A DNA stretch of 64,000 bases from Octopus vulgaris (lineage: Eukaryota): positions 46,996,001 through 47,060,000 of the forward strand of contig OX597827.1 in NCBI GenBank assembly GCA_951406725.2, read 5' to 3'. The notes under the pieces were generated by a model that ran no database searches, was not told where the DNA came from, and worked only from the letters and a program-made list of their open reading frames with translations. Position 1 is the first letter of the stretch. Each line of letters opens with the position of its first letter. Below are positions 10,521 through 57,492 of the stretch, piece after piece. The translations under genes were made by a program, and so were the position numbers.

Positions 10521-12908
10521 TAAGAAAATAGTAAAGTGTGAAAAAACGACAGAAGGCTTAAATGTTAAAAGATATATATATTTGTGTCAAAATGTCTGGA
10601 GAATATTGGAAAAATTTTTTTTCCTTTCCTTAAAATGACATAATTTTTAAATTTTTAAAGAAATTACCGGTTTCGCGTGTAGCTTTTCAAATTTCTTGTG
10701 ACGTTATGTTTATATTGCATGGATTTATCGTTGTTTTTATTTCCAGGAGATTTCTAAATAAGGGGAGGTAGTGAGTGATTTTTTCCGGTGTAGGGGAGAT
10801 AATCGCTTAAAAAATTTTTTTCCCATTTCCTTGTTAATTTCTCTGTGTCAGTATGTTCGGATGGTTGAGTCTGGGTTTGTACTTTTCAATGAAGAATGTT
10901 TCCTTGTTCAGTCTCATTTGTGTTGATGATCCGAAAGCACATTGGTAAAATGGGAAGATTAAAAATTGTGGCAGTAGTTGCTTTGCGCATTTCTCAATGT
11001 GCTCACTAAAAGGTATCATTCTATATTCTGGGAATGCAATCTGTTGTCGATGCAGTGTGCATCTGCGCCTGAGTGATAGTCCCGTGGAACCCACGTAGTC
11101 TTGGTGGCAGCCCGAGCATTTAATAACATAAATTATGTTTTCAGAGGCACAAGTAAAGTTAGATTTGATCTTAAATTTCTGTCCTTCTTTAAAGAAGAAT
11201 TCTGATCCTTCCAATAGGTTAGGACATGTTGCACAGTTCGATCTACCACATTTTTTTACTTTTGCATCCGTAATTTTAGAAGACAATTTTGCCTTTGTGA
11301 GAATCTTTATAAGTGATTTAGGCTGTTTGTAGCTTTTAATGATTTGGTGTATGTTTAGAATTTCCTTAATTTTGGGTTTTTATGAAGTATTGGTAAATTC
11401 TGGGTGATGATGGTGAAGGCTTCTTTGTTTCTGGGGTTGTATGTAGATATGTAAGGTAGTATTTTCGGGGAAGGTGTGTTGTTGTGTTGAACTTTTCTTA
11501 AAGTTTCTATGTTGATTTCTGTTGCACGTCTGATCCCATCCTCTATGAGTTGAGCTGGGTAATGTCTGTCAATTAGGGTGTTTTTGAGTTCTTGCAGTCT
11601 AAAGTTCCTGGTATTTTGTTCTGACACTATTGTGCATATCCTTCTTGCAAGGTTGAAGGGTATGTTTGTTTTAGTGTGTCTTGGGTGGCATGAATTAAAA
11701 GAAGGTATTGTTTGGCGTCTGTGGCTTTGTAAAAAATGTCTGTTTCTATTTTAAGGTTAATTTTTTTAATTAGTATATCCAAGAACGGGAGCTCCTTTTG
11801 GTTGTATTCCATTGTGAACTGTATATTTGGGTTTATGCTGTTCAATAGGTTTTTAAATTTTAGGAGTTTATCTATGTTTTCATTCCAGAGAATGAAACAA
11901 TCGTCTAGGAATCGTTTCCAATTCTCTTTTATATATTGAGAGAGGGAGTTTCCAAAGATTGATAGAGATTCCTGGTAAATGATTATTTCCATGTATCCCA
12001 TTGTTAAGTTCGCAATGACTGGTGCTGCCCTTGTACCCATAGCAATTCCGGATTTTTGACGGTAAAATGTATTGTCAAACATGAAGTGGTTATTGTGTAG
12101 GATGAATTCAATTGATTTAGTAATGAATTCCTTACTGATCCTTTTTGGTATTTCTTCCGGAAATTGGTCTAACCAGAATTGTATTGCCTCCAGTCCATAA
12201 TTATGAGGTATACTGGTATACAAGTTGACTACATCAAATGAAACCAGGATTGTTTCTTCCTTGGTTTTTTTTGGAAGGTGGTTTAACATATCTAAGTCAT
12301 CTCTGATATGGCTATCGATATGTTTAAGGAAGGGTTTCAAGAGGATGTCCATAAGTAGACTTAGTCTGTGTGTTTCACAGGTTGGGCCAGCTACAATGGG
12401 TCGTAGTTTTAGGTCCCCGGATTAGGTGTGTGTATGTATGTCTTTGGTGATTTTTTAATGGTTTCATTTATAATTTGACTTTTATGAATTTTTGGCAGAC
12501 CATAGAAAAGGCTAGGTTTGCATTTAAAGTTTGTTAGGAAATCAATCTCTTTGGTTGTCAGTTCCTTTTCATGGGTTTTAATTAGTGAAGATAGAGTTTT
12601 CATTATTTTTTGTGGGGTGTAGTTGGTAATTTTTTCATAATGTAGGTCTTCATCAAGCAAGGAAATTACAAGATTTCTGTAGTATGATGTATCCATTATT
12701 ACAACTGCATTTCCCTTGTCCGCTTCCTTAATGGTTATATCTTCATCATTTTGGAGTTCTATCAGTTCTTTCCATTGTGTATTGTTAAAATTTGGGTTAG
12801 CTTTCTGTTTATGTATAGTATGGTAGGGGAAGTTCTCAATGTGGTTACAGAATTCGTCAAGATCTTTATTTCTTCCTCTGTGTGGGATGTGTTCACTTTG
12901 ATGTGTTC
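10521..12908 (-). mobile_element. PLE (Neptune-like), 5'-truncated, left arm of palindrome
   Basis: ORFs 12409-12696, 11627-12352, 11355-11627 and 10834-11286 join into RT + GIY-YIG; reverse complement of 12909-15244. Confidence 0.93.
10658..10697 (-). ncRNA. Minimal HHR-like motif with variant core, in PLE 3' region
   Basis: Reverse complement of 15069-15108. Confidence 0.6.
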
Positions 12909-12909
12909 A

Positions 12910-14932
12910 TTCTGTAACCACATTGAGAACTTCCCCTACCATACTATACATAAACAGAAAGCTAACCCAAATTTTAACAATACACAATGGAAAGAACTGA
13001 TAGAACTCCAAAATGATGAAGATATAACCATTAAGGAAGCGGACAAGGGAAATGCAGTTGTAATAATGGATACATCATACTACAGAAATCTTGTAATTTC
13101 CTTGCTTGATGAAGACCTACATTATGAAAAAATTACCAACTACACACCACAAAAAATAATGAAAACTCTATCTTCACTAATTAAAACCCATGAAAAGGAA
13201 CTGACAACCAAAGAGATTGATTTCCTAACAAACTTTAAATGCAAACCTAGCCTTTTCTATGGTCTGCCAAAAATTCATAAAAGTCAAATTATAAATGAAA
13301 CCATTAAAAAATCACCAAAGACATACATACACACACCTAATCCGGGGGACCTAAAACTACGACCCATTGTAGCTGGCCCAACCTGTGAAACACACAGACT
13401 AAGTCTACTTATGGACATCCTCTTGAAACCCTTCCTTAAACATATCGATAGCCATATCAGAGATGACTTAGATATGTTAAACCACCTTCCAAAAAAAACC
13501 AAGGAAGAAACAATCCTGGTTTCATTTGATGTAGTCAACTTGTATACCAGTATACCTCATAATTATGGACTGGAGGCAATACAATTCTGGTTAGACCAAT
13601 TTCCGGAAGAAATACCAAAAAGGATCAGTAAGGAATTCATTACTAAATCAATTGAATTCATCCTACACAATAACCACTTCATGTTTGACAATACATTTTA
13701 CCGTCAAAAATCCGGAATTGCTATGGGTACAAGGGCAGCACCAGTCATTGCGAACTTAACAATGGGATACATGGAAATAATCATTTACCAGGAATCTCTA
13801 TCAATCTTTGGAAACTCCCTCTCTCAATATATAAAAGAGAATTGGAAACGATTCCTAGACGATTGTTTCATTCTCTGGAATGAAAACATAGATAAACTCC
13901 TAAAATTTAAAAACCTATTGAACAGCATAAACCCAAATATACAGTTCACAATGGAATACAACCAAAAGGAGCTCCCGTTCTTGGATATACTAATTAAAAA
14001 AAATTAACCTTAAAATAGAAACAGACATTTTTTACAAAGCCACAGACGCCAAACAATACCTTCTTTTTAATTCATGCCACCCAAGACACACTAAAACAAA
14101 CATACCCTTCAACCTTGCAAGAAGGATATGCACAATAGTGTCAGAACAAAATACCAGGAACTTTAGACTGCAAGAACTCAAAAACACCCTAATTGACAGA
14201 CATTACCCAGCTCAACTCATAGAGGATGGGATCAGACGTGCAACAGAAATCAACATAGAAACTTTAAGAAAAGTTCAACACAACAACACACCTTCCCCGA
14301 AAATACTACCTTACATATCTACATACAACCCCAGAAACAAAGAAGCCTTCACCATCATCACCCAGAATTTACCAATACTTCATAAAAACCCAAAATTAAA
14401 GGAAATTCTAAACATACACCAAATCATTAAAAGCTACAAACAGCCTAAATCACTTATAAAGATTCTCACAAAGGCAAAATTGTCTTCTAAAATTACGGAT
14501 GCAAAAGTAAAAAAATGTGGTAGATCGAACTGTGCAACATGTCCTAACCTATTGGAAGGATCAGAATTCTTCTTTAAAGAAGGACAGAAATTTAAGATCA
14601 AATCTAACTTTACTTGTGCCTCTGAAAACATAATTTATGTTATTAAATGCTCGGGCTGCCACCAAGACTACGTGGGTTCCACGGGACTATCACTCAGGCG
14701 CAGATGCACACTGCATCGACAACAGATTGCATTCCCAGAATATAGAATGATACCTTTTAGTGAGCACATTGAGAAATGCGCAAAGCAACTACTGCCACAA
14801 TTTTTAATCTTCCCATTTTACCAATGTGCTTTCGGATCATCAACACAAATGAGACTGAACAAGGAAACATTCTTCATTGAAAAGTACAAACCCAGACTCA
14901 ACCATCCGAACATACTGACACAGAGAAATTAA
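12910..14932 (+). CDS. PLE reverse transcriptase + GIY-YIG endonuclease (N-truncated; one +1 frameshift in the A run near 14000)
   Basis: PLE motifs ADKGNAVVIMD, YGLPKIHK, LRPIV, SFDVVNLYTSIP, QKSGIAMGT, RFLDD, LPFLD; linker CGRSNCATC; NIIYVIKCSGCHQDYVGST; C-terminal ETFFIEKYKPRLN. Confidence 0.92.
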
Positions 14933-15068
14933 CAAGGAAATGGGAAAAAAATTTTTTAAGCGATTATCTCCCCTACACCGGAAAAAATCACTCACTACCT
15001 CCCCTTATTTAGAAATCTCCTGGAAATAAAAACAACGATAAATCCATGCAATATAAACATAACGTCAC

Positions 15069-15108
15069 AAGAAATTTGAAAAGCTACACGCGAAACCGGT
15101 AATTTCTT
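15069..15108 (+). ncRNA. Minimal HHR-like motif with variant core UUGAAAA
   Basis: AAGAAAT [TTGAAAA] GC-TACAC-GC [GAAA] CCGG [TA] ATTTCTT: 7-bp stem I, 2-bp stem II, palindrome ACCGGT. Confidence 0.6.
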
Positions 15109-56488: not shown

Positions 56489-56558
56489 TGGGACCTACAA
56501 GTTTCAGATTTTTCAAGATATGTCTGCAACCATAATCTTGATCTATCTTCATCAGCCA
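56489..56558 (-). ncRNA. Hammerhead ribozyme, mirror copy with mutated helix III (CTTGTAGG)
   Basis: Reverse complement of 56820-56889 with two substitutions in the palindrome. Confidence 0.7.
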
Positions 56559-56819
56559 AAACATATACCACGACAAAATTTCAGATGTAACCACATTAAT
56601 GCCATTACACTCGACTGAAACGCCGAAACGCTAAAGCACGAGAACGGTGAAGAAGTTTCAATAAATTAGTAATGCAATACTAGAGTATTGCTTTCCAGTA
56701 AAGAATAGCCCGTGAGGGAAAAATACACAAAGTAAATAAATGGCACAACGAAGTACCGATATTTACTGGAAATAGCGAACGTAGTGGTTACATTTGAAAT
56801 TTTGTCGTGGTATATGTTT

Positions 56820-56889
56820 TGGCTGATGAAGATAGATCAAGATTATGGTTGCAGACATATCTTGAAAAATCTGAAACCTGCAGGTCCCA
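56820..56889 (+). ncRNA. Type I hammerhead ribozyme
   Basis: TGG [CTGATGA] AGAT..CAAGAT...ATCTTG..ATCT [GAAA] CCTGCAGG [TC] CCA: canonical core, extended stem II, palindrome ACCTGCAGGT, GUC site. Confidence 0.82.
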
Positions 56890-57492
56890 CATTATCCTTT
56901 TCCAGGTATTTCATCTTTCAGATGTTCTCCCTGGAGGTAAGACAATTTTTTCTAGTTTGTTGCACACACGCATTTTTGCTAATACATACGCGGTGAAGCT
57001 ATACATTAGCGTCGTATTATTACTATTTCCATTACGTACTTCGCATTTATTTATTTGTATATATATATATATATATATATATATATATATATATATATAT
57101 ATATATATATATATATATATATATATATATTTCCATAATCTTGATCTATCTTCAAATATCAGTACTTCGTTGTGCCGTTGATTTACCTCGTCGTCGTTTA
57201 CGATATACATGTATATCTGTGTGTGTTATATATAATATATATATATATATATATATATGTGTGTGTGTGTGTATATATATATATATATATATATATATAT
57301 ATATATATATATATATATATATATATATATATATATATATATATATATATATATATATATATATATATATATATATATATACATATATATATATATATAT
57401 ATATATATATATATATATATATACACACACACACACACATATATATATATATATATATATGTATATATAACACACACAGATATACATGTATA

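Follow-up and report, generated by a model that had tools for sequence, protein, structure and literature searches.

How does a retroelement come to lie in a genome as two copies that face each other? The question is raised by four inverted repeats in a 64-kb stretch of the Octopus vulgaris genome (contig OX597827.1, positions 46,996,001 to 47,060,000; hereafter the window), which belongs to an assembly of 2.8 Gb and 227 contigs. A preliminary description had assigned them to Penelope-like elements (PLEs) that carry hammerhead ribozymes and integrate into (TA)n microsatellites through a fold-back intermediate. All four repeats proved to be present, with the left arm on the minus strand, the right arm on the plus strand and the tails outward (tail-out, i.e., head-to-head), and both the PLE machinery and the (TA)n targeting were supported. 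The loci fall into four repeat families: loci 1 and 3 represent coding PLEs (families F1 and F3), and loci 2 and 4 represent circularly permuted non-coding retrozyme-like repeats (F2 and F4). The fold-back intermediate, however, was not supported. We consider it probable that twin priming on one and the same RNA gives rise to these head-to-head (TA)n insertions, whose two arms terminate at different fixed points, sites A and B. The orientation, the (TA)n flanks, the A/B pairing, the non-nested arms of independent length, the shared minor variants and the junction microhomology were all observed directly.

The outer ends of the insertions were examined in sets of genome copies of the four families, which consisted of the best-scoring copies and not of random draws. 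In F1, 45 of the 48 insertions found were mapped, and 40 of these were head-to-head, 5 single-armed and none tail-to-tail. F1 arms end at unit position 3961 (site A) or 3994 (site B), both AU-rich, and in all 37 insertions with both ends in view an A end was paired with a B end. All 37 were flanked by (TA)n on both sides, the background being 4.9%. The first F1 query demanded a B end on one arm and the second was tail-free; three insertions known only via the second query, through an arm ending at A, all have a B partner. The F4 query selects neither end, and 19 of 26 F4 insertions were head-to-head, with 17 A/B pairs (sites 62 nucleotides (nt) apart), 2 pairs with other ends and no A/A or B/B pairs. 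If ends were chosen independently, 17 mixed pairs would have a chance of at most 0.5^17. Inverted partners of F3, sought within 1.5 kb, were present in 6/30 insertions, with A/B ends in 6/6, and 12/29 F2 insertions were inverted (7 A/B, 1 A/A-like and 4 with other ends, locus 2 included). When the targeted sets were pooled with the random sample described below, A was paired with B in 74 of 82 scorable insertions. The simplest explanation for so strict a pairing would be that both target ends were engaged by one RNA.

The extent of the arms at their 5' ends was then compared for F1. Of 36 insertions, 18 had the longer 5' reach in the A arm, which makes them non-nested like loci 1 and 3, 17 had it in the B arm, and one was a tie; in F4, where nesting was read by hand from the insertion map, 10/17 insertions were non-nested. 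Where one arm extends further 5' and the other further 3', neither could have been copied from the other, and thus a simple fold-back is not supported. The 5' ends of F1 arms were uncorrelated (Spearman 0.13, p 0.45), and the median spacer was 1056 nt compared with 1099 nt for shuffled arm pairs. A simple fold-back, which predicts a contained arm and a short loop, was therefore rejected on account of the 18/36 non-nested F1 insertions and this spacer length. At the same time, the two arms of an insertion share their source. F1 arms differed by 0.65 per kb within an insertion and by 1.76 per kb between insertions, and shared minor variants occurred at 0.745 per kb within vs 0.044 per kb between insertions (17-fold), 111 of 113 being concordant at polymorphic sites. 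L178, which aligned poorly, was left out of the F1 variant-sharing, arm-length and nesting tests. For F4 the corresponding values were 6.1 and 0.85 per kb (about 7-fold), with 6 of the 14 shared variants coming from the window's own locus. Microhomology at 28 clean junctions, complex ones and four with insertions being left out, averaged 1.8 nt against 0.65 nt expected. One of the four junction insertions, the 9 nt at locus 1 (12900..12908), is a local copy of 12886-12894. Taken together, the non-nested arms, shared variants and microhomology suggest that one longer template served for both cDNAs, which were then linked at their ends.

The orientation bias was also measured in an unbiased sample of fifty 20-kb sites at preset positions (1.0 Mb; 60 had been planned, and the last 10, on smaller contigs, were left out). 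The hammerhead descriptor gave 21 hits in 20 insertions there, compared with 2 hits in one shuffle, and 7 of the 20 insertions lay in local inverted repeats, all of them tail-out. Eight hammerhead families, three of whose seeds were taken from the sample itself, contributed 66 arms; within 600 nt these formed 14 head-to-head pairs and no tail-to-tail ones (binomial p 1e-4), whereas 343 arms of four short interspersed nuclear element (SINE) families formed 18 and 8, respectively (p 0.08). Abutting head-to-head pairs (gap ≤30 nt) comprised 20/66 hammerhead-family arms and 4/343 SINE arms (Fisher p 6e-14). The suggested genome-wide tail-out bias was thus borne out, as was the excess of hammerhead elements over SINEs in such pairs. 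Among the pairs from F1-F4 in this sample, 7/8 were A/B. In the counts of this study as a whole, seed F10 and lone hammerhead hits did not serve as families, one SINE was kept from being counted again through its second half, insertions with an arm running off their stretch (L027, L162 and L169) were dropped, and the duplicates L095/L097 and L052/L053 were each counted once. At a rough extrapolation, 14 pairs per 1.0 Mb correspond to about 4 x 10^4 pairs in 2.8 Gb, from which much hairpin DNA and double-stranded RNA could potentially arise.

Pairing was family-specific. No copy of F9 occurred in the random sample, and none of the 11 arms of F6 was paired there, so that inversion as a universal rule for hammerhead elements was rejected. 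The statement that such integration is routine holds only family by family (40/45, 19/26, 12/29 and 6/30 insertions in F1, F4, F2 and F3, and 0/11 arms in F6, the fifth family). The window itself contains three hammerhead elements without an inverted partner (44330-44388, 49623-49950 and 51416-51732), all next to (TA)n, and the latter two belong to F6.

Twin priming on a single RNA would begin with nicks made by the GIY-YIG endonuclease domain in the two strands of (TA)n, a self-complementary target. The target 3' ends would then engage one and the same RNA at two AU-rich patches separated by 33 to about 100 nt, depending on the family, and each would prime one cDNA, the B-primed cDNA displacing the A-primed one; to our knowledge, the PLE reverse transcriptase (RT) is without RNase H. 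The two cDNAs would stop independently and be linked by host end-joining at microhomologies of 1-4 nt. The one-sided tail of PLEs would then be the A-B interval, and mobilisation in trans could extend to non-coding repeats of the same two-site design. The ribozyme is a mark of the 3' region, and the symmetry is explicable without it. In the twin priming of L1 elements, two target strands prime on one RNA and the cDNAs are joined by microhomology into a head-to-head junction, with the second primer annealing at variable internal sites and the resulting pieces not overlapping. Here, in contrast, both sites have fixed positions close to the 3' end, and each arm repeats the sequence of the other. 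Twin priming is favoured by in vitro work on the anole element Poseidon PAc, whose protein, a predicted dimer, nicks and extends both strands of an AT-rich target and starts at two RNA sites bounding the tail (PMC11167929; published sources are cited here and below for the parts of their text that were available). Those parts do not link the two start sites to inverted insertions, and use the word "inverted" once, of an oligonucleotide. The chances seem to us about even that PLE integration is an obligate two-ended reaction, in which one RNA bridges the cut (TA)n via two fixed sites and is copied twice, and that retrozymes hijack the same reaction. If so, this reaction would account jointly for the inverted repeats, for the tail on one side and for the bias towards microsatellites; hijacked by animal retrozymes as well, it would seed long palindromes in this genome in numbers of the order of ten thousand or more.

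Non-nested, independent arms with shared variants would also arise without strand displacement if a pair of RNA units derived from the same precursor or locus were held in an asymmetric dimeric particle, perhaps via the palindromic stem III, each priming one strand before the cDNAs were end-joined. Tandem units exist, and PLE hammerheads appear built to work as dimers (PMC4209133). However, a symmetric dimer gives no reason for the strict A/B pairing, the excess of near-equal 5' ends is left without explanation, and we regard this alternative as unlikely. A lower probability still was given to a fold-back in which one cDNA snaps back, copies itself and has its ends later trimmed to A or B. The nested arms of 17/36 F1 insertions and of locus 4, the variants shared by arms and the excess of small spacers agree with it, and the tail has been suggested to arise by endonuclease resolution (PMC8557442). 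Against this stand the non-nested insertions (18/36 in F1 and 10/17 in F4), the kilobase spacers that match shuffled pairs, and the fact that trimming would have to strip the tail from the primary arm in half of the cases and yet never leave two equal ends. Self-priming on an antisense transcript, followed by integration of a hairpin intermediate, has been proposed for head-to-head PLEs with palindromic junctions (PMC3846280), and one F1 junction is perfectly palindromic; as this model predicts nested arms and small loops while most junctions link unrelated positions, we consider it very improbable here.

That the palindromes are long-read chimeras or assembly errors is barely credible. The arms of locus 1 are indeed 99.96% alike and carry homopolymer indels, and the contigs of four public runs that cover 12800-15290 contained no true opposite-strand joint and none spanning the locus-1 junction among the pieces listed, although short contigs may miss strand changes. 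The sole opposite-strand row was a normal element aligned to the mirrored query, and in one DNA-type run of another study six contigs end at site A and continue into TA. A chimera could not, however, stop at family-specific A/B sites, yield non-nested arms, leave unrelated flanks, spare SINEs or diverge by 10% between arms, as at locus 3. The missing contig support also weighs against twin priming, with two DNA-type runs giving neither opposite-strand joints nor the locus-1 junction among the contigs listed, as do several other points. F1 spacers of ≤80 nt are in excess (7 vs 2.0 expected, p 0.002), as some true snap-back would produce. What the shared variants show is a single source locus and not a single RNA molecule, and arm-to-arm conversion or polishing of the assembly could have increased their number. 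The A/B counts of F1 come mostly from the query that forced B on one arm, the targeted sets hold best-scoring copies, and F2 is less strict, with its A/A-like pair and four other-ended pairs. In the anole system, moreover, priming needed no homology between RNA and target and the strands were alike in start site (PMC11167929), whereas A and B in octopus are AU-rich and match TA.

Head-to-head PLE copies, the one-sided tail and (TA)n targeting are known already. Inverted 5'-truncated copies with a 30-40-bp tail at one end and a (TA)n bias have been described for PLEs, the origin of their tandem and inverted structures and of the microsatellite bias being called open (PMC8557442), and head-to-head is reported as the most frequent arrangement (PMC3846280). 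In Schistosoma, hammerhead pairs on opposite strands lie 100-700 bp apart (PMC4209133). The architecture as such was therefore not new for PLEs, but literature searches covering few subscription papers or older Penelope reviews and no supplements gave no report from octopus and no twin-priming model for PLEs. These searches did not find in print the A/B pairing rule, non-nested arms of independent length that share minor variants, or the junction microhomology; for Neptune-type PLEs, strict A/B pairing, non-nested arms and evidence of a shared template are absent from the available text of PMC8557442. The A/B rule and the non-nested arms of common source, together with their presence in retrozyme-like repeats, are what is added here and open that question to testing: as a signature that can be counted in genomes, the rule and the non-nested arms tell the models apart and make specific predictions for the existing in vitro system. 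Its occurrence in non-coding hammerhead repeats lends mechanistic support to their mobilisation by PLEs, hitherto argued from co-occurrence and phylogeny.

Locus 1 lies between a left (TA)n target remnant (10505..10521) and a right (TA)n (15281..15399). The left arm (10516..12899, minus strand) is a 5'-truncated F1 PLE running from unit position 3961 to 1577 and ends at site A. The right arm (12909..15282, plus strand) contains the RT and GIY-YIG coding region, with a one-base frameshift near 13996, and the 3' untranslated region (UTR), and ends at site B. The left arm extends 46 nt further 5', and the right arm is 33 nt longer at the 3' end, the difference being a tail from site A to site B found on this arm only (15250..15282, plus strand). 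The arms are identical at 2336/2337 aligned bases, apart from five one-base indels. F1 is a young family, the youngest of those studied, with 1799 candidates in the genome, the best copies being 98-100% identical, and its natural full unit of 3994 nt encodes an RT (RVT_1, E 6e-8, also the value for the right arm; DKG motif in the translation), a linker with a CX4CxxC finger and, at the C terminus, a GIY-YIG domain with CCHH. The GIY-YIG motifs are present in the translation, the Pfam GIY-YIG match is below the cut-off (E 0.013), and the Atlas neighbours are GIY-YIG/RT at 0.95-0.98.

With respect to its motifs, F1 resembles the endonuclease-bearing (EN+) Neptune-type PLEs, sharing the RT with DKG, the C-terminal GIY-YIG domain with two cysteines between GIY and YIG, and a finger of the CX2-5CxxC type that is common to Neptune and Nematis (PMC8557442). 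EN+ hallmarks are likewise seen in its partial tandems, inverted 5'-truncated copies, optional tail at one end, (TA)n bias and minimal hammerhead in the 3' terminal repeat. F1 differs in having two overlapping open reading frames (ORFs) instead of one: an ORF of 451 aa and the RT-endonuclease ORF of 776 aa overlap in the -1 frame where a T6A run lies. Full-length units with both ORFs were found at L177:868-4616 and in L151, L159, L161, L169, L176 and L182, and the overlap site is identical in all 17 F1 units spanning it. Judged from these reading frames, the site may be one of programmed frameshifting that could yield one protein, although a single ORF is what has been described for this class. 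The available text of PMC5408684 contains nothing on a two-ORF Neptune. The full RT-endonuclease frame is kept in only 4/17 F1 units (copies L151-L182), and one-base homopolymer indels, which may reflect RT slippage or assembly error, are common.

Locus 3 had been taken for a non-autonomous ribozyme RNA, with locus 1 as the only coding locus. Locus 3 is indeed non-coding in the window, but its sequence corresponds to the 3' UTR of an element in L213/L214 that codes for RT and GIY-YIG (80-82% over 304 and 390 nt), which rules out that interpretation. In the latter element the GIY-YIG match is above the cut-off (E 1e-4), RT motifs lie upstream of the locus-3-like 3' UTR, and the element is itself a 2.2-kb tail-out pair. 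F3 has 3128 candidates in the genome. The left arm of locus 3 (51731..52211, minus strand) is a 3' UTR piece with a (TACA)n-rich head that ends at site B with a tail of about 60 nt; the right arm (52212..52657, plus strand) reaches further 5', owning the spacer, and ends at site A, followed by (TA)n. The arms are just 89.7% alike in their body. A hammerhead-like motif with a G3-C8 core swap and an extra base before stem II lies on the left arm (51865..51915, minus strand), and a degenerate one on the right arm at about 52527-52577. U3-A8 cores and the extra base are known PLE hammerhead variants (PMC4209133), and in the anole element some cleavage is regained with a G3-C8 double swap (PMC11167929). 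C3-G8, U3-A8 and G3-C8 cores are each conserved in families (L213/L214 and other random loci), G3-C8 in 4 intact copies in the 1.0 Mb sampled. Another PLE family, at L262:814-7714, forms a tail-out pair of 2.9 kb that is 98% identical and contains an RT-endonuclease frame; the descriptor missed the hammerhead of this family.

Loci 2 and 4 are retrozyme-like, combining a non-coding, tandem-wrapping unit with a type I hammerhead predicted to be a ribozyme. The left arm of locus 2, which had been placed at 28712, in fact spans 28526..28971 (minus strand); it is part of the 601-nt unit of F2 (632 genome candidates) and ends near site A without (TA)n. It bears a type I hammerhead with a long stem II (28712..28794, minus strand). 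The short inverted arm (28974..29049, plus strand; 75 nt) stops about 20 nt before the motif and ends at neither main site, and (TA)n is found on this side only (29043..29077). Locus 4 is flanked by (TA)n on the left (55876..56077) and right (57058..57129). Its left arm (56076..56783, minus strand) comprises more than one 431-nt unit of F4 (1144 genome candidates; the unit wraps onto itself) with an internal jump and ends at site B, and its right arm (56784..57062, plus strand) ends at site A with small deletions near the end. The arms are 97.8% alike with 8 gaps, several grouped at the right end. A canonical type I hammerhead (56820..56889, plus strand) is mirrored on the left arm with an altered stem III. 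Tandem wrapping of F2 and F4 units was seen in L039, L104 and L102. Such repeats resemble the non-LTR (long terminal repeat) retrozymes in being non-coding, low in GC and circularly permuted, with a type I hammerhead, partial tandems and a proposed dependence on PLEs (PMC7229834; bioRxiv 10.64898/2026.07.22.740005). Retrozymes are described as direct tandems, "inverted" occurring nowhere in the available text of PMC7229834 and once, in a reference title, in that of the preprint, whereas F4 and F2 insertions are head-to-head in 19/26 and 12/29 cases with PLE-type paired ends; the F2 unit is also longer than the 150-450 nt quoted for retrozymes. The supposed extension to non-autonomous ribozyme RNAs is thus supported for the locus-4 family and not for locus 3. 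Scrambled short pieces of the locus-4 unit lie beyond its right (TA)n (57145-57190).

The strict hammerhead descriptor gave five hits in the window, compared with about 0.1 per shuffle at that score: 10690(-) and 15076(+) at locus 1, 28788(-) at locus 2, 56823(+) at locus 4, and 44388(-). Relaxed rules added 51908(-) at locus 3 and 51638(-). An Rfam scan showed no hammerhead among the 150 of 248 matches listed, which were swamped by microsatellite matches. The locus 1 motifs (10658..10697, minus strand, with a palindromic stem III, and 15069..15108, plus strand) are minimal type I hammerheads of the U3-A8 variant. Both arms carry a motif at loci 1 and 4; at locus 2 the motif is on the left arm only, and at locus 3 only the left one passes the relaxed rules. 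(TA)n abuts both ends at loci 1 and 4, but only the right side of locus 2; at locus 3 it follows the right arm.

Further features of the window include a 717-aa non-LTR RT frame (RVT_1, zf-RVT; 53341-55494) between loci 3 and 4, unconnected with the inverted pairs, and a fifth short palindrome at 59744-59913 (79-nt arms 93.6% alike, 13-nt loop) with a similar one in L193 at about 3108-3242. In an inverted repeat at 60040-60168 the (TA)n is central and not outside, whereas related hairpins in L261/L262 have TA outside.

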